Origin: an uncultured Microthrixaceae bacterium
Lineage (GTDB): Bacteria; Actinomycetota; Acidimicrobiia; Acidimicrobiales; VFJN01
Length of the DNA stretch: 64,000 bases
Reading direction: 5' to 3'
Assembly: GCA_963703565.1 (NCBI GenBank)
Contig: CAVPEW010000034.1
Coordinates: 2,878-66,877, forward strand
This document shows positions 3,266-14,872 of this stretch, piece by piece. The notes beneath the pieces were generated by a model. The model did not search any database. It saw only the letters and a list, made by a program, of their open reading frames with translations, and was not told where the DNA came from. The first letter of the stretch is position 1, and the number at the start of each line of letters is the position of its first letter. The position numbers were made by a program, and so were the translations under genes.

Positions 3266-4057
3266 GTGTCGCGTCCACCCCATGACCCGCTGACGTGGTT
3301 GAGGGATCTCTTCTCGGATTGGACGCCTCAGGTGCGTGCTCTCTTCCGAGTCGGCCAAGAGGGCACGCTTCCGCTCGACGCCGTCTCGGATGGAGACCTC
3401 CGTGCCGAACTCACGGAGAAGGGGTGGCTCCTTCCCCTGCCCGACGAATCTGCGGCGCTCTCGAACCTCTTCGAGACAGAGATTCTCGACATTGTCCACA
3501 GCGCGCTCGACGGCGAGGACGTGCGGATTCGCAAGGGGGGGAGCCGCTCGTATCCTGACTTCGAGATCGAGGGGACGTTCTTCAACGGCGGCGCGCATGC
3601 GGTCGACATCAAGTGCGCCCGCCACTCCGGCACGAGCGTGGACTCCACCATCGCGCTCTATACGGGCAACACGTACTTCCTGTTCCCCGACCTGCTGTTC
3701 CCGGGAATGCTCCGAACGTTCGGCGAGTACGACGAGCGGATCGCGATCGTCATCCTCTACCGATATCGGCCCGACCTGCAGGAGCGATTCTCAGACGTCC
3801 GGGTCGCTATCCACCCCGTGTGGCGTATCGCAGGGACGACCAAGCCCTCTTCGACTCGCCACTACATCGGCTCGGTGAACCGAGTCGATGACATCGTGGC
3901 CGGCAAGGGTGCGTTCGATACTCCGGACGAGTTCTACGCGTACTGGCGGTCGGCACAGCGGGGCTGGCCGGTGAACCCCGGCGTCGCAAAGGCGAAGAAG
4001 AGCGCTGCCGCCCTCGCTAAGGGGACGACGGCGAAGCGCAAGCCCAAGAGGAAGTAG
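3266..4057 (+). CDS. Candidate type II restriction endonuclease (PD-(D/E)xK-like)
   Basis: 263-aa ORF with a GTG start. It contains ...SRSYPDFEIEGTFFNGGAHAVDIKCAR..., which fits PD...(D/E)xK (PD then D-I-K 16 residues later). It is convergent with, and 19 bp from, the m5C methyltransferase. The C-terminus is a Lys/Ala-rich tail. Confidence 0.5.
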   Translation: MSRPPHDPLTWLRDLFSDWTPQVRALFRVGQEGTLPLDAVSDGDLRAELTEKGWLLPLPDESAALSNLFETEILDIVHSALDGEDVRIRKGGSRSYPDFEIEGTFFNGGAHAVDIKCARHSGTSVDSTIALYTGNTYFLFPDLLFPGMLRTFGEYDERIAIVILYRYRPDLQERFSDVRVAIHPVWRIAGTTKPSSTRHYIGSVNRVDDIVAGKGAFDTPDEFYAYWRSAQRGWPVNPGVAKAKKSAAALAKGTTAKRKPKRK

Positions 4058-4076
4058 CCGTAACTGACGTTCGGTG

Positions 4077-5210
4077 TCAGTGCCGAGCGACGGCGGCGAC
4101 ACCCTCCGCGACCCGGTGACCGAGCAATGGAGGCACGGAATTGCCGACCTGCGATTGGATCGAGGCGCGCCGGCCGACGAAGGCGAAGGCGTCAGGGAAG
4201 GTGAAGAGCCGACGCAGCTCAGGGACCCGGAGCCGGCGGCTCTCCCAGTGGAACGGTCCGACGTTCGGCCCGGGCTGCGCCTGGATCGTGGGTGATGGTC
4301 GGCTCGGGTCCAGCTTCAGCAGGAACGACCAGTAGCGCGATCGCCAGCCGAACATGGGGCTCGGATGGCCCCGTTCGGCTGTGTAGTAGAGGTAGTTGTC
4401 ACCGGGCGGGATGTCGGGCAAGAGGTGACCCCATTGGCCGCGGACCACTTCCTCGGGCTCCGGTTCGGTCACGAGCCCAGCAAGCGCCTCGCCAGTTGTC
4501 ACATGCGGCAACGGACCGCCCGCGACCTTCCTTCGCTCCCACTCGCCATGGTGGGTCGGCAGTGGCAGTTCGGGCAGCTTCTCGGTCTTGGCGGCGCCGA
4601 CGATGAACAGGCGAGGTCGGGCCTGTGGGATGCCGTAATCGGCGGCGTTGAGAACCCGCCAGGAGAAGCGATATCCCGCCGCCTCGATCTCACGGAGAAG
4701 GCGCTCGAACGCCGGCCGGCTGGCCTTGTTGTCGAAGGTCAGCGCATACACGTTCTCGAGGATGAAGTGGCGCGGCCGCGCTTCTGCCAGTACACGGGTG
4801 TACGCCTGCAACAGGCTGGCGGCCGGATCGACGCCGTCTCGCTTCCAGTCGAGCCAGAAGCCGGACTTGGAGAAGGCGACGCATGGAGGCCCACCTACGA
4901 GCAGGTCCGGACGCTCTCGACGCTCGTAGCCGCCGGCACGAAGGATGTCGCGGGTGGTTACGCCGCCCTCGGACCCAGTCGCCAGCGGGTAGAGATCCGC
5001 CCTGAGCACTTCCCGTAGGCCAGGGAAGTACGCGCCCGCGTTCTTCTCCATCGTGTCAGCCGCGTCTTCGTCCCACTCGACTGCGACGGCCGTCCTGAAC
5101 CCGGCGGCCTCGATGCCGAGATCGAGCCCGCCCGCGCCTGCGAAGAGCGAGATCGCGTTCCCGACAGTCACGGTGACAGTCTTGTCGCTGGCCTGTGCTG
5201 CGGTGCGCAT
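4077..5210 (-). CDS. dcm: DNA (cytosine-5)-methyltransferase
   Basis: Motifs seen: I LFAGAGGLDLG, IV GGPPCVAFS, VI ENV, VIII IPQARPRLFIVG, X GNSVPPLL. The start is placed at the ATG at 5210 (MRTAAQASDK...). The track ORF extends to 5393, so the start is uncertain. Confidence 0.9.
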   Translation of the reverse strand: MRTAAQASDKTVTVTVGNAISLFAGAGGLDLGIEAAGFRTAVAVEWDEDAADTMEKNAGAYFPGLREVLRADLYPLATGSEGGVTTRDILRAGGYERRERPDLLVGGPPCVAFSKSGFWLDWKRDGVDPAASLLQAYTRVLAEARPRHFILENVYALTFDNKASRPAFERLLREIEAAGYRFSWRVLNAADYGIPQARPRLFIVGAAKTEKLPELPLPTHHGEWERRKVAGGPLPHVTTGEALAGLVTEPEPEEVVRGQWGHLLPDIPPGDNYLYYTAERGHPSPMFGWRSRYWSFLLKLDPSRPSPTIQAQPGPNVGPFHWESRRLRVPELRRLFTFPDAFAFVGRRASIQSQVGNSVPPLLGHRVAEGVAAVARH

Positions 5211-5299
5211 GGTCGGGCCCGCGAGGAGGCTGAGCTGGACGCCTGCTCGGCGCCGGTCTCTCTCAGTCGCGCGCATGCGGACGAGGGTAAACAGGGGGT

Positions 5300-5785
5300 G
5301 TGACAGGAAAGCTGGGCCCAGGCACTCGGAAACGGTCTCTGACCAGCCCACCAAGGCTCCCCGAGGGGTCGTTCGCGTCGAGCGACACCGCACGGCTTCG
5401 CATGCAGACGCAACGGCGTGTCGGAACCGCGCCCGAGCTCGCGGTTCGCCGCGCAGCCCACCGCCTCGGCCTGCGGTACTTCGTGAATCGGCGTCCGGTT
5501 CCAGCGCTCCGGCGCACAGCAGACTTCATGTTCCCGACCGAGCGGGTCGCGGTCTTCGTCGATGGATGTTTCTGGCACGGGTGCCCGCAGCACGGTCGGG
5601 GCGCGATCCGTGAGAACACCTGGTACTGGCCCGAGAAGATCGCCAGCAACCAACGACGCGACCGGGACACCGACGCCAGACTCCTCGTCGAGGGCTGGCT
5701 GCCGCTTCGAATCTGGGAACACGAGGAGCCCAGCGACGCTGCTCATCGGATCCGCGACGCTGTGAGGGAGCGTCGCCGCCGCTGA
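5300..5785 (+). CDS. vsr: Very-short-patch repair endonuclease
   Basis: Contains ...RRVGTAPELAVRRAAHRLGLRYFVNRRPVPALRRTADFMFPTERVAVFVDGCFWHGCPQH...NTWYWPEKIASNQRRDRDTDARLLVEGWLPLRIWEHE. This matches the Vsr signature FVDGCFWHG..W..KI..N..RD. It is divergent from dcm. The start is uncertain. Confidence 0.85.
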   Translation: MTGKLGPGTRKRSLTSPPRLPEGSFASSDTARLRMQTQRRVGTAPELAVRRAAHRLGLRYFVNRRPVPALRRTADFMFPTERVAVFVDGCFWHGCPQHGRGAIRENTWYWPEKIASNQRRDRDTDARLLVEGWLPLRIWEHEEPSDAAHRIRDAVRERRRR

Positions 5786-6052: not shown

Positions 6053-9000
6053 TCACAAGGACCGTCCCAGGCTGCGATGAGGCGGCTCGATCTCCGGCTG
6101 CCGACCGAGAGCCCGATCCAGGCGTTCGACGGCCTGAACCGCCGCCCAGTGACTGGCCGCGTACGCGTCCTGGCCGAACGGACGGGGGGTTGGACCCGCG
6201 AGCGTGGTTCCGTGCAGCTCGAAGGCAAGGTGGTGCTGCGCGAGCCGCCCTGCGGTGTCCTGCCAGAGCTCGCGCTCCGGCCCGCTGCTGGGCGACGATC
6301 CGATTCGGTCCAAGACGACCTCGGGCAGCGTGACCTCCGCGTCCCGTCCTCGGAGTTGGGCGTCGTGCTCGAGCGCATGGCTGACAAGCCCGAGCTCGGT
6401 CCGCAGCTCCCGGAGGTCGGCGACGTCGGCTTCTGCCTGACCGAGGCGCCGATCGGCATGAGGTACCTGGCGCTCCAGCTCCGCGAGCTTGGCCCGTGCC
6501 TCGTCGATCGAGCCCGGCAGCGAGTTCACCCAAGAACGCGCGCGATCGATCTCGGCTCGATGTCGGCGCCGGAGCAACGGGCGGTCCAGCTCGGCGAGCT
6601 TCTCGCTCGCATCGATGAGCCTGGCTCGGTAGTCCTCGATCGACCGGCGCACCGCGTCCTGCTGGTTCGCCAGCATGCGGACCCGTGCTCGAGTGGCATC
6701 GAGCTTCGCCGGCGCCTGGGAGATCCGCTTGTCCAGCTCAGCATGACGTTCGAGGAGCTCACGAAGCTCCCTGCCCGGTAGCGGCCGGTCGGGCGCACGC
6801 TGGCGTCCGTCACCGTCCGACCGTCCCGCCGTCGCGCGCACCTCCGCCCGGACGGCGACCGCCGGTCGATCGATCCACGATCGGCTGAGCGCCTCGGCGA
6901 TAACGTCGGCTGGAGTCTCCTCACCTCGGATCACGACGAACGCATCGTTCGACTCCCGGCCCCTGGTCATCGGAACGTAGATGCCACTCGCACCGGCGGG
7001 GCCGTCGAGGTACAGGAACGAGCGATCGACCGTCCGGCCCTGATTGGCGTGGCTGGTTTCGGCGTAGGCGAGCTCGACGTGCTCGCGCACGTAGTCGGCC
7101 GGCAGCTTCACGGTTCCGGTCTTGCCCGCCACCGTCAGGGTGCCGTCCCGGTGGATCGCTTCGACCGTCCACCGGTCGCGGTTCTTGACCATGAGGTGCC
7201 GGTCGGTGACGAGCTGGCGGGCGTTCTGGCGCGTGGCGACGAGGTCGCCCCGGTGAACGCGGTACGGCCCGACCTCGACGGCCCGGCCCGCAGGGTCGAG
7301 GTCGCCGGCCTCGAGTCGGCGCCGCTGTGCTTCGAGGTTGAGCGCCACGACCGCCGCGTTGGTCGGTGCCATCATCGACGCCGATTCGCCTCGATCGAGG
7401 GCCGCACGCCATTCGTCGACGACCGCGTTGCGCATCTGCCGGGCGGTCCCGCCGTGGAGGCGGTCGTGCTGTTCGTAGGTGTCGATAACCGTGGTGTCCC
7501 CGCGGCGGAGCCGGAGGCTGGCCTCCCGTTCCCAGTCGTGGTTGAACCGGTGGACCCGGCCGAGCTCGATGGCGCCGAAGGTGTCCACGAAGTGGCCGAA
7601 CATGCCGGACCGGCCGACGGCGGCGAACTGCAACGGGTCGCCGATCATCGCCAGGCGCCATCCACGTCGCTCGGCCAGCTCCATGAGTTCTGCGAGCCGA
7701 GGCGTCGGAACCATCGCGGTCTCGTCCACGATCACGGTCGAGCCCGGAGGGAGGTCGTAGCGATGGTCCGGCGGCCGGTCCAGGTTGTGCTCGACGAGGA
7801 GCTTGTCGACGGTGTCGGCATCGGCCGATGCATCGACCGCCAGGACCTCGGCGGCCGCCGCCGACGGAGCGACGCCGAACACCGGGCGGCCCTCCCGACG
7901 GAGCTGGTCGACGGCCGGGCGGAGCGCCGTCGTCTTGCCGGTGCCGGCGGGCCCGACGGCGAGCACCAGCGACCGGTCGCCGGCGACGGCTTCGGCCAGT
8001 GCCCGCTGCGGCGCGTCGAGCTGCTCGTGCGCCTCGATGCTCCGGTCGGTGCCGCCGGCGGCCAGGCGACGCTCGGCCAGAGCGAGGAGCCGCTCCTCCT
8101 GGGCGAGGATGCTCGGAAGGCTCAGGATGCGGTCGACCGCCGCCTCGGTGGTGGGCCGACCGTCCCGACGGAGCTGCGCGCCGGCGGGGCTCGGGCGTGA
8201 GAGGTCAACCATCCTCGCGGCGACGACCTTGTCGGCCACGTCGTCGAGCCAGGGGGTGAGCTTGCCGGCGGCGATCCCGAGGTTGGTCGGCACGACGGCC
8301 GCGAGCTCTCGCACCAGCTCGGCGACGCGCCAGGTGGACTGCTTCTCGGCGAGCGCCTCGAGTGCTCGCTCCACGACCTGCTCCGCTGTGCGCTGGTCCA
8401 GGCGATCGATGCCGCGCTCGACCCCGATGGCCTTCGATACCACCTGCTCCCTGTCGAGGCCGAGGTCGGCCAGGCGGCCGAGCCAATCGGCCTCCAAGGT
8501 CTGCTCGTCGGCCTCGGCTTTGGGCGGCCGACTGTCCAGCACCGCCTCGCGCTCGAGCTGCCACCTCTCCCGCGGCGTGGGCTGGCGTTCGAATGAGTCG
8601 ACGAACCGTTCGAGCTTGTCCTCGTAACGGGCGTCGACCGCCTCGGTGCGCTGGGAGAACTCAGCGAGCACGTGGTCGGGGACGTCGCGGATCTCAGCAA
8701 TGCCGTTGACGGGGTCGTGCCACCGGACGCCGAGTCTCAGCGTGGTCTCAGCGCGGAGGCCAGCCTGGTAGATCCGGCTCAGCGTCTGCTGGTCTCGCTT
8801 GATGGTGCGGGCGTCGAGCGCCAGCCACCTTCCGTCGGGTGACCACACGCGGTTGACGACGACCGCGTGGGAGTGGAGCTGGGGATCGAGAAGCTCGGCT
8901 GGTGTGCTGACGGAAGACGGCCGCGGTGATGCCATCGGCGTCGAAGACGCGGACGTCGCCGTTGACCCGGTAGCGGCAGTGGGCGTGACGGTCGATCCAG

Positions 9001-9356
9001 TCGACGACGCTGGCTACGGCGGCATCGTGGGCGTCAAGGACGTCCTGGCGAACGGCGTCATCACCGAACGCGAACAGCATCGACACGGACTTGGGTGCCG
9101 AGCAGGTGACGTCGTAGCCGCGCACGGTTCGGTCAGTGTGGCGAGTACCGAGCGCGCGGCCAGAGACCGGATCAACGCCGGCCATGAGATCAAGGAAGTC
9201 GTCTTCCTCGATGGCGCCGGTGAGTCCGAGCCGGTCCGCTCCTCTGCCGTGCCACATGCCAGGCGGCTCGCCGCGGTCGAGGTAGTAGCCGAGCTGGTCC
9301 TCGACGTAGTAGCGCCCAGCGTCGGCGCCCCGCAGAGTCGTGGTCCGCGCGGTCAC
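6053..9356 (-). CDS. traA: MOBF-type conjugative relaxase (TrwC/TraA-like) with a helicase domain; apparent +1 frameshift near 8890
   Basis: The N-terminal relaxase domain is in the frame of track ORF 8748..9851 (GTG at 9356: VTARTTTLRGADAGRYYVEDQLGYYL...DVTCSAPKSVS...AAVFRQHTSRA). It continues in ORF 6053..8935 (..LLDPQLHSHAVVVN...). A P-loop ATPase/helicase region follows (VGPAGTGKTT...IVDETAMV...), then a long coiled-coil tail. The junction is AGC CGA GCT [T]CT CGA TCC CC. Confidence 0.8.
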
Positions 9357-9444
9357 GTTTCGCTCCCGCACGAGCGCGTGCACTCGTCTGTCCTTCGGTG
9401 CGACAGGTGGGCTGCGGGGCGGCGGGACATCGGGAAGCTCGCAA

Positions 9445-9780
9445 TCAGGCGGGTCGGCCGTCGGGAACGACGGTGATGCCGGACTCGTCGAGATGGACGA
9501 CGTAGGTCGTCGGTCGGAAGGTGGCGCCTGGCCGTCGGTCGACGGGCTCGATGACGCCGGCGCGGGCGAGCTGGCGCAGGCACCGGTGCACCGTGTCCTT
9601 CGACAGGAACTGGAGCCGCTCTGCGATCTCGCGGGTGCTCGCCTGCGCGACGAGATCACTGTCGCGACACTCCGCCCGGGCCAGCAGATCGTGGAGCACT
9701 GCCAGCGCTTGCGGCCCGTTGGCGCGGAGGAACGACAGCGCCGCCGGATAGCGATGCTCGATCCGGACCTCAGGCGGCAT
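9445..9780 (-). CDS. Winged-helix DNA-binding protein (hypothetical)
   Basis: Taken from MPPEVRIEHRYPAALSFLRANGPQALAVLHDLLARAE...STREIAERLQFLSKDTVHRCLRQLARAGVIEPV (HTH). It lies directly upstream of the relaxase gene. The start was chosen inside track ORF 9445..9936. Confidence 0.5.
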   Translation of the reverse strand: MPPEVRIEHRYPAALSFLRANGPQALAVLHDLLARAECRDSDLVAQASTREIAERLQFLSKDTVHRCLRQLARAGVIEPVDRRPGATFRPTTYVVHLDESGITVVPDGRPA

Positions 9781-9997
9781 CGCTGCCTCCCGTCGGGTCC
9801 AGCTCGATGAGCGCCAGTCGCAGCAGCGCCGCCGTGGGGATACGGAGGCAACGACCGAACTGCACCACCGGGATGCCTTCCCTGCCGCCGGACTCGCGCC
9901 AGAGGCGCGTCTGCTCATAGAGCTGCGACCGACCAAGCTGGGTCAGCTCCTGTGCTTGCTCGACCCGCAGGAACGGCGGAAGGTCGTCGTATCGCAT
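9770..9997 (-). CDS. xis: Excisionase-like / MerR-type HTH DNA-binding protein
   Basis: The translation is MRYDDLPPFLRVEQAQELTQLGRSQLYEQTRLWRESGGREGIPVVQFGRCLRIPTAALLRL. This 75-aa protein has the layout of Xis/AlpA-type HTH_17 proteins. It is divergent from the XRE-integrase pair. Confidence 0.6.
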   Translation of the reverse strand: MRYDDLPPFLRVEQAQELTQLGRSQLYEQTRLWRESGGREGIPVVQFGRCLRIPTAALLRLALIELDPTGGSDAA

Positions 9998-10021
9998 CGC
10001 CACCTCCGGCGAAGCCCAACA

Positions 10022-10059
10022 CCTTACTCTGGCGTAAGGCATCATTCCATGATGGAATG
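10022..10059. promoter_or_regulatory. Two palindromes in the xis / XRE divergent intergenic region (candidate operators)
   Basis: CCTTAC-n6-GTAAGG lies at 10022-10039. A perfect 17-bp palindrome CATTCCAT-G-ATGGAATG lies at 10043-10059. Both sit between the xis start (9997) and the XRE start (10123). Confidence 0.4.
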
Positions 10060-10122
10060 GCGGAACGGACAGCGCAACACCGGGGAGCCCGCGACCTGTC
10101 CCCCATCTGAGACGGAGGGTGC

Positions 10123-10893
10123 ATGGCGAGAGCCAAGGCCGAGGACAAGCGAGGCTGGGCGGCAAGCCAGGTCGTCGCGCACAACCTCACGAAGGCGCGC
10201 GAGCTTCGGGGGCTCACACAGGCCGAGATCGCCGAGCGCCTGAGCCGATTCACCGGCGCGCCGTGGAGCCCGACGACCGTGGCGCAGGCCGAGGGATCGG
10301 TCAGCGGTCAGCGGATCCGGCAGTTCACCGCCAACGAGCTCGTCGCGCTCGCGCGCACCTTCGACCTGCCGGTGCTGTTCTTCTTCCTGCCGCCTGATGA
10401 CGGCGAGGGCCGGCTCGTGACGGACGATGCCAAGGGCGGGCTGCCGTGGGAGTATCTGCTCGTCGTCCTGCTCGGGCATCGTGGCAACTTCCCGGTGCTG
10501 GCCGACCGCACGGCCAACTGGGCCCACCTCCTGGCCAACGGCATCGACATCCCGCGCTCGGACGCCCTGCCCGACGACGACCCGATCCTCAGTGAAATCG
10601 CCGGCAGCCGTCGCCGGGAGCCGCTGCTCCCCGAGGATGTTCTCGCCGCTGTGTTCCATGGCTTGGCGTCACGGCACATGCGTGGCGCTCCCCGGCCGGG
10701 TGACGACGTCGCCACCATGGCCGCCAACCTTCGTGGTCTCGCCGATGCGCTGACCGCCTTCAACAACTACCGACCCGGCGAGTTCGTCGACGAACGAGTT
10801 GCCGCCGAGGTCGCCGAGCAACGCAAGCAACGCGAGCGACGACGGCGAACCGCCGCCGAGGCCGCGCCGGCCGGAGAGGACGACGATGAGTAG
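10123..10893 (+). CDS. XRE-family HTH regulator with a C-terminal domain of unknown function
   Basis: The N-terminus ...VVAHNLTKARELRGLTQAEIAERLSRFTG...TVAQAEG is a Cro/C1-type HTH. The stop overlaps the integrase ATG by 8 nt. Confidence 0.75.
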   Translation: MARAKAEDKRGWAASQVVAHNLTKARELRGLTQAEIAERLSRFTGAPWSPTTVAQAEGSVSGQRIRQFTANELVALARTFDLPVLFFFLPPDDGEGRLVTDDAKGGLPWEYLLVVLLGHRGNFPVLADRTANWAHLLANGIDIPRSDALPDDDPILSEIAGSRRREPLLPEDVLAAVFHGLASRHMRGAPRPGDDVATMAANLRGLADALTAFNNYRPGEFVDERVAAEVAEQRKQRERRRRTAAEAAPAGEDDDE

Positions 10894-12250
10894 CCGAGCG
10901 AACGTCAGCAAGCGAGGATCGACCTGGACGTACTACGTCTACGTGACCGGCGGCGACGGCCGGCGCCGACAAGTGTCCAAGGGCGGGTTCCGGACCCGCA
11001 AGGAGGCCGAGGCCGCTCGCGTTCGAGCGCTGAGCACCTTGCAGAACGGCACGTGGGTACGCCCGGAGCGGGTCACGGTCCGCGAGTTCCTCGAGGACGA
11101 GTGGTTGCCGACGCAGGCGCCGCCAACCCTGGAGGAGAGCACCTACCGCTCCTACCGCCGCTACGTCCGGCTCCACGTCGTGCCCTACATCGGCGGCATC
11201 CCGCTCCAACAGCTCAAGCCGATGGAGCTCACGGCGCTCTACCGCCAGCTGCTGGAATCCGGCCGCCGCCAGCCGACGCCGCCCGCCCGGGTGCACCCGC
11301 CCGAACTCGGCGCCATGGTCGACCGCCTTCGAGCCGACGGTCTCACGTGGCAGGCGGTCGCCGACGAGGTGGCCGCGGCCTTCCCTGATGCCGGCGGGTT
11401 TACTCGTCACGCCGTCGCCGGCCTCCACCGGCGCCGTCACGCGCCTGCGCCCGCATCGTCCCGGCCGGCAGGGCTCAAGCCGCGCACCGTGCTCTACATC
11501 CACTCGATCATCCACGCAGCGCTGAAGGACGCCATGCGGTGGAACCGAGTGGCGCGCAACGTCGCCGACGCCGCCATTCCCCCGCCAACCGGCGCGACCA
11601 AGCGCGGTCAGCACACGACCTGGACCGGCGACCAGCTCCGCCGCTTCATCGACTTCATCGCCGAGGACCGCTACCTGACGCCGTGGATCTTCCTCGCGAC
11701 GACCGGCTGCCGCCGCGGCGAGTGCCTCGGCCTTCGCTGGGGCGATCTGGACCTCGACGGGTCCACGGCGGTCATCTCACGCCAGGTGACATCGATCGAC
11801 CACACGATCGTCGTCAAGGAGCTGCCCAAGACGAAGCGCGGGCACATGGTCTCGCTCGACTCCAGCACAGTGACCGTGCTCCGTCGGTGGCGAGCGCAGC
11901 AGAATGAGGAGAAGCTCCTCGTCGGCCCCGGCTACGCGGACGAGGGCTACGTGTTCTGCAAGCCCGACGGCACCGTGTATGACCCCGACCGCTTCAGCCG
12001 GGAGTTCGACCGCAAGCAGGTGCAATTCAATCGGGCGCACGCCGATGATGCGCTACCGAGGCTGACGCTCCACGGCCTGCGCCACACGTGGGCGACGTTG
12101 GCGCTCCACGAGGGCATCGACATCAAGGTCGTCAGCGACCGGCTCAACCACTCGAGCACCTTCGTGACGCGGGAGATCTACACGCACGTCACGCCTCCGA
12201 TGCAGAGCGACGCCGCCGAGCGCGTAGCGAACTCGATCTTCGGCGGTTGA
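10886..12250 (+). CDS. int: Tyrosine-type site-specific integrase
   Basis: Taken from the ATG at 10886 (MSSRANVSKRGSTWTYYVYV...RRQVSKGGFRTRKEAEAAR, an arm-binding-type N-domain). The catalytic region contains ...TGCRRGECLGLRWGDLDL... and ...HGLRHTWATLALHEGIDIKVVSDRLNHSSTFVTREIYTHV (R, HxxR, H, Y). Confidence 0.9.
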   Translation: MSSRANVSKRGSTWTYYVYVTGGDGRRRQVSKGGFRTRKEAEAARVRALSTLQNGTWVRPERVTVREFLEDEWLPTQAPPTLEESTYRSYRRYVRLHVVPYIGGIPLQQLKPMELTALYRQLLESGRRQPTPPARVHPPELGAMVDRLRADGLTWQAVADEVAAAFPDAGGFTRHAVAGLHRRRHAPAPASSRPAGLKPRTVLYIHSIIHAALKDAMRWNRVARNVADAAIPPPTGATKRGQHTTWTGDQLRRFIDFIAEDRYLTPWIFLATTGCRRGECLGLRWGDLDLDGSTAVISRQVTSIDHTIVVKELPKTKRGHMVSLDSSTVTVLRRWRAQQNEEKLLVGPGYADEGYVFCKPDGTVYDPDRFSREFDRKQVQFNRAHADDALPRLTLHGLRHTWATLALHEGIDIKVVSDRLNHSSTFVTREIYTHVTPPMQSDAAERVANSIFGG

Positions 12251-12348
12251 CCACCGGAATCTGTGGTTCCCCGTGAGGCCGATTGCTGAGCTTCCGCCGG
12301 GTGATCCGCGGGCCGCCGCTCGACGTCCGCCGGGCGTCACTACGGTGC

Positions 12349-13374
12349 ATGTCGATGGGTGACATCACGTTCATCGGTCAGCGGGAGCCGGTCGACGAGT
12401 ACGGCCGAGCCCTCTACGCGGTAGCGCGCTCGATCATCCGGGCGCAGCTCGACCAGCTGACCGCCGACGACCTCACCGACCTGAACTGCGACCGCGTCGA
12501 CGTGTCAATGCGGCAACTCGCGAAGGTCTCTCGCCTGGACAGAGACAAAGGCATGAGGGGTGACGGCTTCGAGTGGGCGGTGCACGAGGCCACTACCGGC
12601 GGCGAGCCACGAGTAGTCCAGCTGCTGTCAGACGTGCTGCCTCGACTGTCACCGCGGGCATTCAAGGGAATGGGCTCGCCGACGTCCCTGCTCTTTGGCT
12701 ACGAGCGCGCGAAGTACCTCGGCTTCCTCGACGCCGTTGTGGACAACGCGGGGGGCGACGCTCTGCTCCTTCCAGACGGCAACCAGGGCCGGCCCTTCTA
12801 CTTCGGGCCGTGGGTCACGCTGGCCGCGAAGGGCGAGCGGGCAGAGCCGCAGCTGCGCCCGCGCATCAAGAAGGTGTGGAAGACCGATCTGTTCCTGTCC
12901 TCACAGGATTCCTGGCGCTACGTAGCAGCCACGGTGAAGAGCAACTGGAAGCTGCTTGAGGCCGGACCAGGTCTCCGTGTTGGCATCGTTCCGGAAGCCA
13001 AGGACCTTCGTCCGGGAGTGCGTTACAAGGACGGTCTGTGGCTTGCCGTGTTGCCTGATCCGGACGGCTTCATGGGCCTCTTCAACGACGCGTACTGGTC
13101 GGTCGCCGCGTCTGTGTGCACGCTCGGCAAGCACGTGCGACCGCCCTACTACATGAAACCAACGGCAAAGGGTGAGCGACTGCAAGCGCAGCTCGAGAGG
13201 TATCCGACGGCGAAGGTCATCGACATCGAAGGCGCCCTCAACGAGGCCGCCCAGCAAGATCTCGTCGCGGTAGAACACACCCTCGTGTCGGTCCAAGCTC
13301 CAGAGTGGCTTCATATCAACGAGACGCGCACGCCCGTGATCGCAGCCAAGCCAAGTTTCGAGCCTCTGGACTAG
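12349..13374 (+). CDS. Hypothetical protein (341 aa), weak PD-(D/E)xK-like pattern
   Basis: Long ORF with sensible composition in a lower-GC patch, start ATG 12349 (MSMGDITFIGQ...). Possible nuclease-like elements are GFEWAVHEA, KTDLFLSS and ATVKSNWK. I recognise no family. Confidence 0.55.
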   Translation: MSMGDITFIGQREPVDEYGRALYAVARSIIRAQLDQLTADDLTDLNCDRVDVSMRQLAKVSRLDRDKGMRGDGFEWAVHEATTGGEPRVVQLLSDVLPRLSPRAFKGMGSPTSLLFGYERAKYLGFLDAVVDNAGGDALLLPDGNQGRPFYFGPWVTLAAKGERAEPQLRPRIKKVWKTDLFLSSQDSWRYVAATVKSNWKLLEAGPGLRVGIVPEAKDLRPGVRYKDGLWLAVLPDPDGFMGLFNDAYWSVAASVCTLGKHVRPPYYMKPTAKGERLQAQLERYPTAKVIDIEGALNEAAQQDLVAVEHTLVSVQAPEWLHINETRTPVIAAKPSFEPLD

Positions 13375-13414
13375 CGCCGCGCTAGACGTCCCACGACCGC
13401 TCGCACGATCCGCC

Positions 13415-13960
13415 TCATGGGACCTTTCGCCGACGGGTCCGCGTCGCCGCCTTCGTAGTCGCGATGAGGGCGTCGATCGTTTCGAGCATCATGAGCGCGC
13501 GGGCCGGCTCGTCGTCGATCAAGGAGTGAGCCCTCGGGTTTCGCCATGCGCCGACGACGCCTTGGCACAGGTGCATGTGTCCACGCTGCTCGCTCTCATC
13601 GCTCTTGATCCTACCTGCGTTCACCCGGAGCAGTGGTGCGTTCGGAGAGAACGCCACCGTCATCAACGCGTCCCCGTCTTCCGTCCGTCCGGTCCGGCCC
13701 CGAACGCATTCGTTCAAGGCCTTCACCCCCGCCTCGACCGCATCTGCGTAGTGGGTCGACACGAAGCGGGACCGCGTCGCTGCTCGCAGATCCGGGTCGG
13801 CTACTCGGCGGTCGAACTCGGCGAGCAGATCGTCCCTCGGGGGGAGGACCTCCGGGGCAGCCGCCGTCGCTTGGTCGTGCGGCTGGGAGAACTCGGCAAG
13901 GTCTCCCGCCAACCGCCGCGCGATCCCGATCAGTCTCTCGCCGCCCGTCATGCGAGTCAC
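13415..13960 (-). CDS. TIGR02391 (Hypoth_ymh)-family protein
   Basis: The C-terminal region ...THYADAVEAGVKALNECVRGRTGRTEDGDALMTVAFS...GVVGAWRNPRAHSLIDDEPARALMMLETIDALI matches the TIGR02391 pattern as I remember it (AV..A.K......dG..Lm..aF ... RNp.aH). The GTG start overlaps the upstream gene's stop (GTGA). Confidence 0.7.
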   Translation of the reverse strand: MTRMTGGERLIGIARRLAGDLAEFSQPHDQATAAAPEVLPPRDDLLAEFDRRVADPDLRAATRSRFVSTHYADAVEAGVKALNECVRGRTGRTEDGDALMTVAFSPNAPLLRVNAGRIKSDESEQRGHMHLCQGVVGAWRNPRAHSLIDDEPARALMMLETIDALIATTKAATRTRRRKVP

Positions 13961-14631
13961 TGCTTGTACAAGTGCCTCGCCATGCTCTCGAAGATCTGAT
14001 CAATCTGCTCGGCCGAAGCATCCGCAGGAATGTGGATCTGGATATCGAGATGCACGTTCGGCCCCGCGCCGGGGGTCTGCTTCGACGGCTCCGGAGTGAC
14101 GATCGCCGGCGGGTCGGGTGGCGTCGAGGTCGTCCTTGTTGTCGGAGCTGCCGCCTTCTTCGCTGGCGTCTTCTTCGTCGTCGCCTTCTTTGGCTCGGTC
14201 GCCACCGTGTCGGGCACTTGCTTGCTGGCGATCATCACGTAGGTCGCCGCCATCTGCCGAGAGTTCGACCCGCCGAAGCCCTTGTGGTCAAACCAGGTCT
14301 TGACGAGCTGAGGGTCCGGCGCACCCGACCCGTCCGCAAGGGCCGACAAGTCGGCGGGATAGATCTCGTCGAGGATCTCCTGACACGCGTCCGCGTAAGA
14401 GGCGTCGACCCGCCACTTGTTGCCCCGCGCGGTGAGCGCGCCATCCTCGTCGATCAAGCCCAGCTTCCGCATCGGGCTCACGGTGTTGTCGCGCGCGCTC
14501 TCTGGACTGGCCATGCCCATCAAGGCTGCGACCGTCGACGGCGTGAACTTCGTTGAGGGGGCGGCCGCCGCGCGGGAGCGAAGTGCTCGCCACGCCTTTG
14601 TGGTGACCTTCGGATAACCATTCGATGCCAT
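13957..14631 (-). CDS. DUF5343-like protein with a Pro/Thr/Lys-rich linker
   Basis: The N-domain reads MASNGYPKVTTKAWRALRSRAAAAPSTKFTPSTVAALMGMASPESARDNTVSPMRKLGLIDEDGALTARGNKWR...EILDEIYPADL...WFDHKGFGGSNSRQMAATYVMIAS. This resembles DUF5343 proteins from memory. It is followed by a low-complexity linker and the conserved-looking tail NVHLDIQIHIPADASAEQIDQIFESMARHLYKQ. Confidence 0.6.
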   Translation of the reverse strand: MASNGYPKVTTKAWRALRSRAAAAPSTKFTPSTVAALMGMASPESARDNTVSPMRKLGLIDEDGALTARGNKWRVDASYADACQEILDEIYPADLSALADGSGAPDPQLVKTWFDHKGFGGSNSRQMAATYVMIASKQVPDTVATEPKKATTKKTPAKKAAAPTTRTTSTPPDPPAIVTPEPSKQTPGAGPNVHLDIQIHIPADASAEQIDQIFESMARHLYKQ

Positions 14632-14647
14632 GCGTGCCTCCGCCCGC

Positions 14648-14718
14648 GCGAACTACATCGATGAGATTACCCGCGCCGTGTAACAGTCCACAGAGGGTTG
14701 CTGACAAATCGCGGACAA
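14648..14718. repeat. Right-end copies of the sub-terminal motifs
   Basis: GCGAACTACA at 14648-14657 is the inverted 9/10 copy of TGTAGTTTGC. TGCTGACAAATCGCGGACAA at 14699-14718 is identical to 676-695. Both lie 70-140 bp inside the tRNA-proximal att core. Confidence 0.5.
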
Positions 14719-14785
14719 ACGGCCTCTGGAGCCCGCTCGCCGGCCTCGCCGCACCGCCCTGACCAGCACCTTCGCGCTGATCCTG

Positions 14786-14872
14786 TGGTGTCGGAGGGGG
14801 GACTTGAACCCCCACGCCCTTGCGGGCACCAGCCCCTCAAGCTGGCGCGTCTGCCTATTCCGCCACTCCGAC
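14786..14872 (-). tRNA. tRNA-Leu (anticodon GAG), class II, with encoded CCA
   Basis: The reverse complement folds by hand as follows. Acceptor GTCGGAG/CTCCGAC. D-arm GCG-GAATAGGCAGA-CGC. Anticodon stem CCAGC/GCTGG with loop TTGAGGG (anticodon GAG). Long variable arm GCCC-GCAA-GGGC. T-arm GGGGG-TTCAAGT-CCCCC. Discriminator A followed by CCA. Confidence 0.93.
14788..14809. repeat. tRNA-proximal att core (22 bp, inside the tRNA-Leu 3' end)
   Basis: Identical to 524-545. Confidence 0.85.

Follow-up and report, generated by a model that had tools for sequence, protein, structure and literature searches.

A conserved pair of genes for a DUF5343-like protein and a predicted HEPN ribonuclease on a mobile actinobacterial island is a candidate defence or addiction module

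Introduction

Do three genes that lie together between an integrase gene and a tRNA gene act as one system, and if not, which of them belong together and for what function? This question was raised by a genomic island of an uncultured Microthrixaceae bacterium (assembly GCA_963703565.1, contig CAVPEW010000034.1). The whole stretch of DNA that was analysed, 64,000 nucleotides (nt) long, is called the window here, and the three genes are designated gA, gB and gC. A preliminary description, made from the sequence without database searches, had proposed that the overlapping pair gC-gB, possibly together with the neighbouring gA, is an undescribed defence or abortive-infection (Abi) system. HEPN ribonucleases (RNases) are a main effector class of bacterial immunity. 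To our knowledge, the control of stand-alone HEPN proteins of the Ymh and DUF4145 families is little understood. Here we report that gC and gB form a conserved two-gene unit that recurs across many phyla with exchangeable nuclease partners, and that gA is a separate gene.

Results

Co-occurrence of gC with a nuclease gene

An open reading frame (ORF) scan found all three genes at the positions noted earlier.

12349-13374, plus strand: gA, 341 amino acids (aa); the probable start at ATG 12355 gives 339 aa
13415-13960, minus strand: gB, 181 aa, with a GTG start; component B of the cassette, predicted effector
13957-14631, minus strand: gC, 224 aa; component A of the cassette
13957-13960, minus strand: GTGA start/stop overlap of gC and gB, read from the sequence

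The plus-strand sequence at 13957-13960 is TCAC (GTGA on the minus strand), and the GTG start of gB shares bases with the TGA stop of gC, exactly as the preliminary description had it. This overlap is predicted to couple the two genes translationally. An alternative in-frame start of gB, ATG at 13951, lies three codons in. The genes gA and gB are convergent, and 40 nt separate their stop codons.

One genome per species was scanned for 185,579 species, and 124 stretches encoded a relative of gC. The best 80 of these 124 stretches were kept as loci with 10-kb flanks, and all counts over 80 loci refer to them; a single locus is named by its L number where it has to be told apart. The 80 loci span Actinomycetota, Chloroflexota, Pseudomonadota, Bacteroidota, Acidobacteriota, Gemmatimonadota and Bacillota. 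A gB homologue lay immediately downstream in 19/19 loci in which the gC relative was at least 46% identical. Among the 79 assessable loci, 77 had a nuclease gene of 150-230 aa (roughly 175 aa) directly after gC, usually with a 4-bp overlap, and the downstream position was occupied as follows.

43 loci: HEPN partner of the DUF4145 family (Pfam scans and clustering)
32 loci: HEPN partner of the Ymh family (Pfam scans and clustering)
1 locus: partner like the DpnII/MboI restriction endonuclease (REase) (E 1e-21)
1 locus: predicted pPIWI-associated nuclease (pP_pnuc_1; E 1e-14)
2 loci: partner missing, gC kept (L043 and L055)
1 locus: contig end, not assessable

The co-occurrence that the preliminary description had proposed to look for was thus found, with a partner nuclease in 77/79 loci and one of the Ymh type, like gB, in 32. 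All-against-all clustering of 1,341 ORFs from the 80 loci revealed no third conserved gene beside the pair, and the pair was not detected in 50,697 phage genomes, 2.9 million IMG/VR contigs or 72,556 plasmids. When the loci were searched for gA, it occurred in 0/80; conversely, gB and gC occurred in 0/96 loci of gA homologues, which had no other recurrent neighbour either. The lack of co-occurrence in both directions indicated that the pair is the unit and that gA stands outside it, and the idea of a three-gene unit had to be given up. We conclude with high confidence that gC-gB is a conserved, mobile HEPN two-gene unit. The earlier proposal that the pair is a candidate defence or Abi module was strengthened by the pairing in 77/79 loci, by the variable, mobile contexts of the pair and by its exchange in a sister island, both of which are described below.

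gB is a predicted HEPN ribonuclease

The gB protein matched Pfam Hypoth_Ymh (PF09509) with an E-value of 4.7e-26 (91.4 bits, cut-off 25) and NCBIfam TIGR02391 with an E-value of 2.3e-19 (69.7 bits, cut-off 39.45), and its earlier description as TIGR02391-like therefore stands above the cut-offs of both databases. Its N-terminal amphipathic helix (about residues 8-24, ERLIGIARRLAGDLAEF) is joined by a Pro-rich linker to the HEPN domain, of the Ymh family, at residues 54-165. The RNPRAH motif that had been singled out before occupies residues 140-145, so that the Rx4H motif is intact (R140-NPRA-H145), and RNPRAH was at least 90% conserved among 28 aligned Ymh-type partners. Sequence and profile searches of the PDB with gB, gA and gC returned nothing relevant. 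In 2013 Anantharaman et al. assigned the Ymh/TIGR02391 domain to the HEPN RNases, as a family in which an Rx4-6H motif is conserved (PMC3710099). Judged by its family and its intact Rx4H motif, gB is predicted to be a Ymh-family HEPN RNase.

The DUF4145-type partners in 43 loci (e.g. L021, 10670-11188), which are putative RNases, mostly have Lys where the catalytic Arg would stand, with the consensus lK..Gd.SAH.RR, and the spacing from this position to the His equals that of R146-H154 of RAZR.

gC is a divergent DUF5343-like protein with a conserved C-terminal motif

The direct match of gC to Pfam DUF5343 (PF17278) was below the gathering score (18.9 bits against 27, E 0.0019). Many close gC homologues hold a precomputed PF17278 match, and the relative at L071, which is 30% identical (tblastn E about 4e-14 to gC), matched DUF5343 with 123 bits (E 1e-35) and has the architecture of gC, the same C-terminal motif and a nuclease partner. 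By this transitive homology gC is predicted to be a divergent DUF5343 protein; the earlier label thus holds by way of the relatives and not by the direct match.

A total of 316 gC homologues were found. The protein is composed of an N-terminal domain (N-domain; about residues 10-140), a basic linker rich in Pro, Thr and Lys (143-188) and an acidic beta-alpha motif at the C-terminus, PNVHLDIQIHIPADASAEQIDQIFESMARHLY (191-223), hereafter the C-motif. The AF2 model of gC showed a mostly helical N-domain with pLDDT above 90, a C-terminal strand and helix, and between them a linker with pLDDT below 50; the Pro/Thr/Lys linker remarked on in the preliminary description is therefore borne out and is disordered in the model. 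Conservation is concentrated at the C-terminus: over 73 members of the gC family, mean pairwise identity was 64% in the C-motif, 34% in the N-domain and 11% in the linker, and within the C-motif the core QIDxIFxSMAxHL was 75-99% conserved. The C-motif has an isoelectric point of 5.3 (acidic), whereas that of the gB HEPN domain is 10.1 (basic).

The C-motif was also present on at least two other N-terminal domains (one at L074-L076 and L080, the other at L078), followed each time by a Ymh-type HEPN partner. These alternative carriers are encoded at L074 4442-5215, L075 4071-4865, L076 9467-10249, L080 9629-10192 and L078 1266-1796. Their N-domains had no Pfam match, and one type seemingly contains two '...N.V...R.LGL' winged-helix-like units. 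A search of a large protein database with the 43-residue C-terminal motif gave two fragments only.

A similar N-terminal helix in all partner classes

An amphipathic helix of the form aLxlA+xIQx-v, similar throughout, stands at the N-terminus of all partner classes, and a Pro-rich linker and the nuclease domain come next. Examples of this N-helix are ERLIGIARRLAGDLAEF in gB, ALSLAKDIQKDV in a partner of the DUF4145 type, ILEIAASIQTKV in the REase type and TLDISRRINNDV in the pPIWI-associated nuclease type. An hhalign comparison of Ymh-class with DUF4145-class N-termini gave a probability of 93% and an E-value of 3e-7; the catalytic domains of the two classes shared only 10-16% identity in the comparison with gB. 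From the conservation of the C-motif in gC and of the N-helix in its partners, we infer that the two may form the physical link between the components, and through such a link the effectors would be exchangeable. Docking of this kind together with masking of the nuclease is, in our estimate, possible at somewhat less than an even chance.

gA is a separate gene

No family was matched by gA in Pfam, NCBIfam or PADLOC, in agreement with the earlier remark that it has no nameable family. Its only match was PHROG 30306 (E 1e-94), to which PHROG assigns no function. Homologues begin at the third residue of the annotated frame, so the true start is probably the ATG at 12355. The family is small, with 690 homologues and 181 representatives at 50% identity, and identity across actinobacterial genera is 65-95%. 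Conserved residues are E75, H79, S113, E119, K178, D180 and K197. The AF2 model of gA was confident (pLDDT 88, pTM 0.86), and no significant match to its fold was found in the PDB (best Foldseek E 0.4; McrC with a probability of 0.06-0.14) or in BFVD. In the model, the near-invariant E75 lies on a helix (69-83), D180 starts a strand (181-185) and T195-V-K197 ends another (190-196), as an (S/T)xK variant. From E75, D180 and K197 and the weak McrC hits it may be guessed, doubtfully, that gA is a PD-(D/E)xK-like nuclease.

Homologues of gA were also found in nine IMG/VR contigs, and more distant ones on four actinobacterial plasmids. Pseudomonas phage H66 (L090, 3485-4555) carries a homologue with 54% identity and phage AUS531phi (L091, 4980-5969) one with 28% identity. 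These phage homologues are 'moron'-like genes on the opposite strand in the early regions of temperate phages, with a small ORF before them and C5 methyltransferase genes near. We considered gA as the nuclease of a restriction-modification (RM) pair and rejected this assignment as a general explanation, since the proximity to a methyltransferase was seen in two Pseudomonas phages and did not recur in the 96 gA loci. gA is a separate solo gene, a widely transferred orphan.

The island and its swappable cargo slot

The genomic features that frame the pair are listed below.

10799-12250, plus strand: tyrosine integrase (Pfam Phage_integrase E 3.7e-19, with SAM-like and arm-binding (Arm-DNA-bind_4) domains); context, outside the cassette
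13378-14698, unstranded: swappable cargo slot from the gA stop codon to the probable arm-type repeat, occupied by gC-gB in the window and by a reverse-transcriptase gene in the sister island
14632-14698, minus strand: cassette-specific region upstream of gC, with a ribosome-binding site, GGAGG, 8 nt ahead of the ATG start and a -10-like hexamer, TAATCT
14699-14721 with a second copy at 676-698, unstranded: 23-nt direct repeat TGCTGACAAATCGCGGACAAACG (repeat family D7), right edge of the cargo slot
14786-14872, minus strand: tRNA-Leu(GAG), the integration target (ARAGORN)

Integrase and tRNA were thus confirmed on either side of the three genes. A second copy of the 25 nt at the tRNA 3' end (14785-14809) lies at 521-545, with 24/25 identical positions (repeat family D4 and alignment of the ends). 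These attachment (att) repeats delimit an island of 14.2 kb, and the three genes are situated at its tRNA-proximal end. The 23-nt repeat follows the pattern TGCTGACAAATCGCGGACAA(A/G)CG, and each island end has a copy close to its inner side, at a distance of 131 nt from the att core on the left and of 64 nt on the right; CGCGGACAA is additionally present at about 660-670, near the left copy. The 23-nt repeats are probably arm-type integrase sites, a reading based on the arm-binding domain of the integrase. The G+C content is 65-67% across the three genes and 75% in the chromosome beyond the tRNA. Scans for promoters (sigma-70 consensus) and terminators gave results at chance level, and no sigma-70 promoter was called upstream of gC; an operator search there found no inverted repeat. 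The region 14632-14698 is kept in an independent copy of the cassette (L184, below) and is missing from the sister island.

The sister island was found on three metagenomic contigs (L181-L183) and uses the same tRNA-Leu(GAG) as its integration site. Amino-acid identity between the sister island and the window is 75% for the relaxase, 77% for a helix-turn-helix (HTH) protein, 74% for the integrase and 94% for gA. At the nucleotide level, L182 is 78% identical to the window over 9000-13377 and 84-85% identical over 14699-14866, and the interval between is unaligned; homology restarts exactly at the right 23-nt repeat (14699). In the sister island, a reverse-transcriptase gene (PF00078) replaces gC-gB between the gA stop and the arm-type repeat. 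This reverse transcriptase (L181 1202-2838, L182 6093-7633, and on L183) is divided into ORFs of 118 and 338 aa in all three independent contigs and has a helical-repeat C-terminal region; the division points to a frameshift or to two separate genes. In the PDB the protein has weak similarity to Cas6-RT-Cas1, group II intron, retron-type and Drt2 reverse transcriptases. A retron RNA (msr/msd) beside the gene was looked for with Rfam, which gave tRNA only, and was not retained as a candidate. The identity of 94% for gA (12349-13374 compared with L182 5065-6084), against 74-77% for the integrase, HTH protein and relaxase, reflects either recent exchange or unusually strong constraint. In L182, the start of gA overlaps the end of the integrase gene.

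An independent copy of the cassette, 87% identical to window positions 13410-14769 and without gA or an integrase, was found at L184, where it adjoins an XhoI-like REase, an Eco57I-type methyltransferase and a Fic gene. This copy retains about 140 nt ahead of gC (L184 480-670), including a diverged arm-type repeat, and has no tRNA; this suggests either the remains of a related island end or a transfer from one. In Neomoorella stamsii (L018, 6324-14339), the pair is placed in the same orientation between HmaA (E 5e-168), an SNF2 helicase with an NOV_C domain, and HmaB (E 3e-121), a DUF1156 methyltransferase. By clustering, the pair at L039 likewise lies between the two Hma genes and in the same orientation, and two Hma-like genes come directly after the pair at L026 and L037. 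Tyrosine integrases were near the pair in 8 loci, and a tRNA was directly upstream of gC, as in the window, in 5 of the 30 loci scanned for it. The context of the pair is thus mobile, variable and recurrently RM- and Hma-associated.

Elsewhere on the island, a TrwC-type relaxase with an AAA_30 helicase domain is encoded at 6053-8935 on the minus strand, and the island is an integrative mobilisable element. An AbiEii toxin gene (E 3.5e-39) stands between two AbiEi-like genes (761-2999). A C5 methyltransferase gene (E 5.4e-49) lies within 3266-5393; the match of the adjoining 'EcoRV-like' gene was sub-threshold (E 4e-5), so the nuclease of the RM pair of this methyltransferase was not securely identified. 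Of the AbiE and RM systems said to reside on the same island, AbiE and the methyltransferase were accordingly recovered, and the RM assignment lacks a firm nuclease.

Comparison with known systems

HEPN-MNT toxin-antitoxin systems of type II/VII, such as SO_3166/SO_3165 of Shewanella, consist of a HEPN RNase toxin and a cognate controlling partner in a tight operon. The pair resembles them in combining a predicted HEPN RNase with a partner in a tight two-gene operon. However, the HEPN domain of gB belongs to the Ymh family and not to the MNT-associated DUF86 type, and no nucleotidyltransferase family was matched by gC in Pfam, NCBIfam or PADLOC. The lack of a nucleotidyltransferase excludes HEPN-MNT, and control by AMPylation is not expected.

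PD-lambda-3 is reportedly a two-gene system of E. coli, from the work of Vassallo et al. in 2022. It works by abortive infection (PMC13190303), and one of the domains that a review names for it is a PD-(D/E)XK nuclease (PMC10952713). gB matched the C-terminal, Ymh-like part of PD-Lambda-3_B (E 8e-13), but only profile positions 135-245 of 270 were covered, and gB is without the N-terminal half. The HEPN domain is all that gB has in common with PD-Lambda-3_B and with the HEPN effectors of Argonaute systems. No match to PD-Lambda-3_A was found in gC or gA.

PDC-M34 of PADLOC (Payne et al.) is a two-gene candidate cassette, FAM_01148>>FAM_01657, with 97 occurrences, and is one of 145 candidate PDC systems derived by 'guilt-by-embedding' (10.1101/2024.01.29.577857). 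gC matched PDC-M34A with an E-value of 3.5e-10 over residues 20-221 (profile positions 22-207 of 208), and distant relatives of gC likewise matched it from end to end, including the C-motif (E 1e-9 to 1e-14). Further likenesses are the two-gene cassette with A before B and the embedding of some relatives of the pair in Hma systems, the kind of setting by which PDC candidates were recognised. The modest scores against PDC-M34A suggest a sibling subfamily. PDC-M34B was matched neither by gB nor by the partner proteins (60 scanned: 57 at E<=0.001 and 3 at E<=1). The PADLOC search recommended in the preliminary description thus recovered the A component and left the locus without a call. In the literature, neither DUF5343, TIGR02391 nor PDC-M34 was mentioned in main texts, and PDC-M34 appeared as one row of a supplementary table. 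To call the pair undescribed and without an assigned function was therefore an overstatement, in view of the HEPN RNase classification of Ymh since 2013 (PMC3710099) and the match of gC to PDC-M34A; PDC-M34 itself is only a candidate.

Single-protein HEPN defences (AbiJ-NTD-HEPN fusions [Anantharaman 2013], RAZR/PD-T7-4, BxaP, Ishtar and HEC-08) would share with the pair a variable N-terminal sensor or adaptor combined with a HEPN domain of the Ymh or DUF4145 family, as well as abortive-infection logic and the exchange of effector domains among families. Defences of the RAZR type are triggered by phage proteins (PMC13017515). In contrast to these proteins, the putative sensor and effector of the pair are separate polypeptides, which would be joined by the C-motif and the N-helix; no fused gC-gB version was present among the homologues examined. 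Partners of the gC family also matched the effector models of short Argonaute systems in PADLOC (Aga_HEPN, Aga_Helical-REase and Aga_Nuclease): Ymh-HEPN partners matched Aga_HEPN with E-values down to 1e-18, and one REase-like and one pP_pnuc_1-like partner matched effector models as well. Unlike in those systems, the sensor here would be a DUF5343-like protein. No Argonaute or APAZ family was found in the scanned ORFs of the island, and no Argonaute-like gene recurred beside the pair in the 80 loci. Membership in PDC-M34, PD-lambda-3 and the Argonaute-associated systems was rejected, each on a defining component. The generic layout of type II toxin-antitoxin or Abi modules, by comparison, is present: a 4-bp bicistronic overlap, pairing in 77/79 loci, and a cassette that has been swapped and relocated.

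Discussion

It is credible that gC-gB is a new variant of HEPN toxin/Abi modules and a candidate anti-phage or addiction module. The explanation that we favour, and consider slightly more than evenly probable, is that the pair is a self-contained mobile two-gene toxin/effector cassette of the Abi or toxin-antitoxin type in which gC, as the obligatory partner, silences gB by docking. That the cassette acts in defence or addiction is rather probable in itself; the specific mechanism of docking and masking falls a little short of an even chance. In this mechanism, the C-motif of gC would dock the short N-terminal amphipathic helix borne by every partner nuclease, and docking would hold the basic HEPN domain inactive. 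The basic linker would serve as a flexible tether between the N-domain and the C-motif of gC, the N-domain may bind nucleic acid or sense a trigger, and gC may autoregulate the operon. The gB RNase would be set free by infection, or once gC is lost, titrated or degraded; it would then cut cellular or phage RNA, and growth would stop. In different genomes, one gC scaffold would recruit a HEPN-Ymh, a HEPN-DUF4145, a DpnII/MboI-like REase or a pPIWI-associated nuclease.

Several points weigh against this explanation. The argument for docking is drawn solely from co-conservation. A near-invariant motif that meets a fairly variable helix is unusual for a toxin-antitoxin interface, and the C-motif might have another role, in binding to a conserved host factor or in self-assembly. 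A Foldseek search with gC gave no significant fold match (best E 0.37, with weak hits of the MarR type and the winged-helix type), so the assignment of its N-domain as a winged helix is tentative. No partner matched PDC-M34B, so PADLOC would not call the locus and the pair is a sibling of that candidate system and not a member. The genes adjacent to the pair are mostly non-defence genes and very diverse, with 111 Pfam families among 130 neighbours, aconitase and GidA included; the neighbour counts lack a background control, and for this reason we claim no statistical enrichment near defence genes.

If gC is not an antitoxin, its N-domain could recognise a phage component and then assemble or activate an otherwise inert HEPN partner, as in RAZR and the short Argonaute pairs. 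Varied N-domains on a constant docking motif are what would be expected of sensors under diversifying pressure, the effector set (Ymh-HEPN, DpnII/MboI-like REase and pP_pnuc_1) is the Argonaute-associated set of PADLOC, and HEPN defences such as RAZR are switched on by phage proteins (PMC13017515). On the other hand, a regulator upstream and a nuclease downstream with a 4-bp overlap is the classic layout of type II toxin-antitoxin systems, the acidic motif facing a basic HEPN domain suggests masking, and the two single-component loci (L043 and L055) kept gC, as expected if the nuclease alone is harmful; we regard activation by gC as the main rival, though a minority possibility. A plain post-segregational killing module that stabilises the island and has no role against phages appears improbable. 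It would suit a mobilisable island that carries a relaxase and an integrase, the toxin-antitoxin-like gene layout and the many ordinary genes that neighbour the pair elsewhere, but the pair did not turn up in 72,556 plasmids, a setting in which addiction modules are frequent. Moreover, Hma and RM systems repeatedly enclose the pair or lie beside it, and in the sister island it is swapped with a reverse-transcriptase gene. Addiction and defence are not mutually exclusive roles.

The proposal that gA, gB and gC form one system drew on their proximity and convergent order, with 40 nt between stops, and on the nuclease-like motif in gA. As a conserved association it is already refuted by the absence of gA from 80/80 gC loci and of gB and gC from 96/96 gA loci; moreover, the sister island retains gA (94% identical) with a reverse transcriptase in place of the pair, and the L184 copy of the cassette is without gA, which leaves this proposal very improbable. 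A housekeeping operon for RNA processing or regulation is more improbable still. HEPN domains do serve core RNA processing in some lineages (PMC3710099), and some neighbours of the pair are housekeeping genes; however, the pair is spread patchily over many phyla (124 stretches in 185,579 species genomes) in non-conserved contexts, lies here inside an att-bounded island of low G+C content, and is swapped as a cassette.

A broader reading goes further. The gC family would be a previously undescribed 'plug-and-play' defence architecture, in which the almost invariant 33-residue C-motif docks the N-helix of interchangeable nucleases; as a separate matter, gA would be a defence nuclease that acts as a single gene and has a new fold. 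We put this forward tentatively and consider it unlikely as a whole. Under the plug-and-play reading, the motif and the helix may form a composite mini-domain across two polypeptides, for example a ribbon-helix-helix in trans. When the C-motif and the partner N-helix were combined into one profile, it matched no ribbon-helix-helix sequence in the PDB, and the split ribbon-helix-helix stays speculation. If the plug-and-play architecture were true, sensor domains and effectors would be shuffled independently across phyla.

As for how such stand-alone nucleases are controlled, the locus and its relatives point to a specific answer, namely a partner protein that would tether the nuclease through a short, strongly conserved motif, with at least four types of nuclease and in many phyla. 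If the favoured explanation of gC-gB as a toxin/effector cassette is true, it would provide a function for DUF5343 and for a PADLOC candidate family and would define a portable protein-protein docking pair. It would also add an actinobacterial defence cassette for which nature offers an 'allelic' comparison, the reverse transcriptase that occupies the same slot in the sister island.

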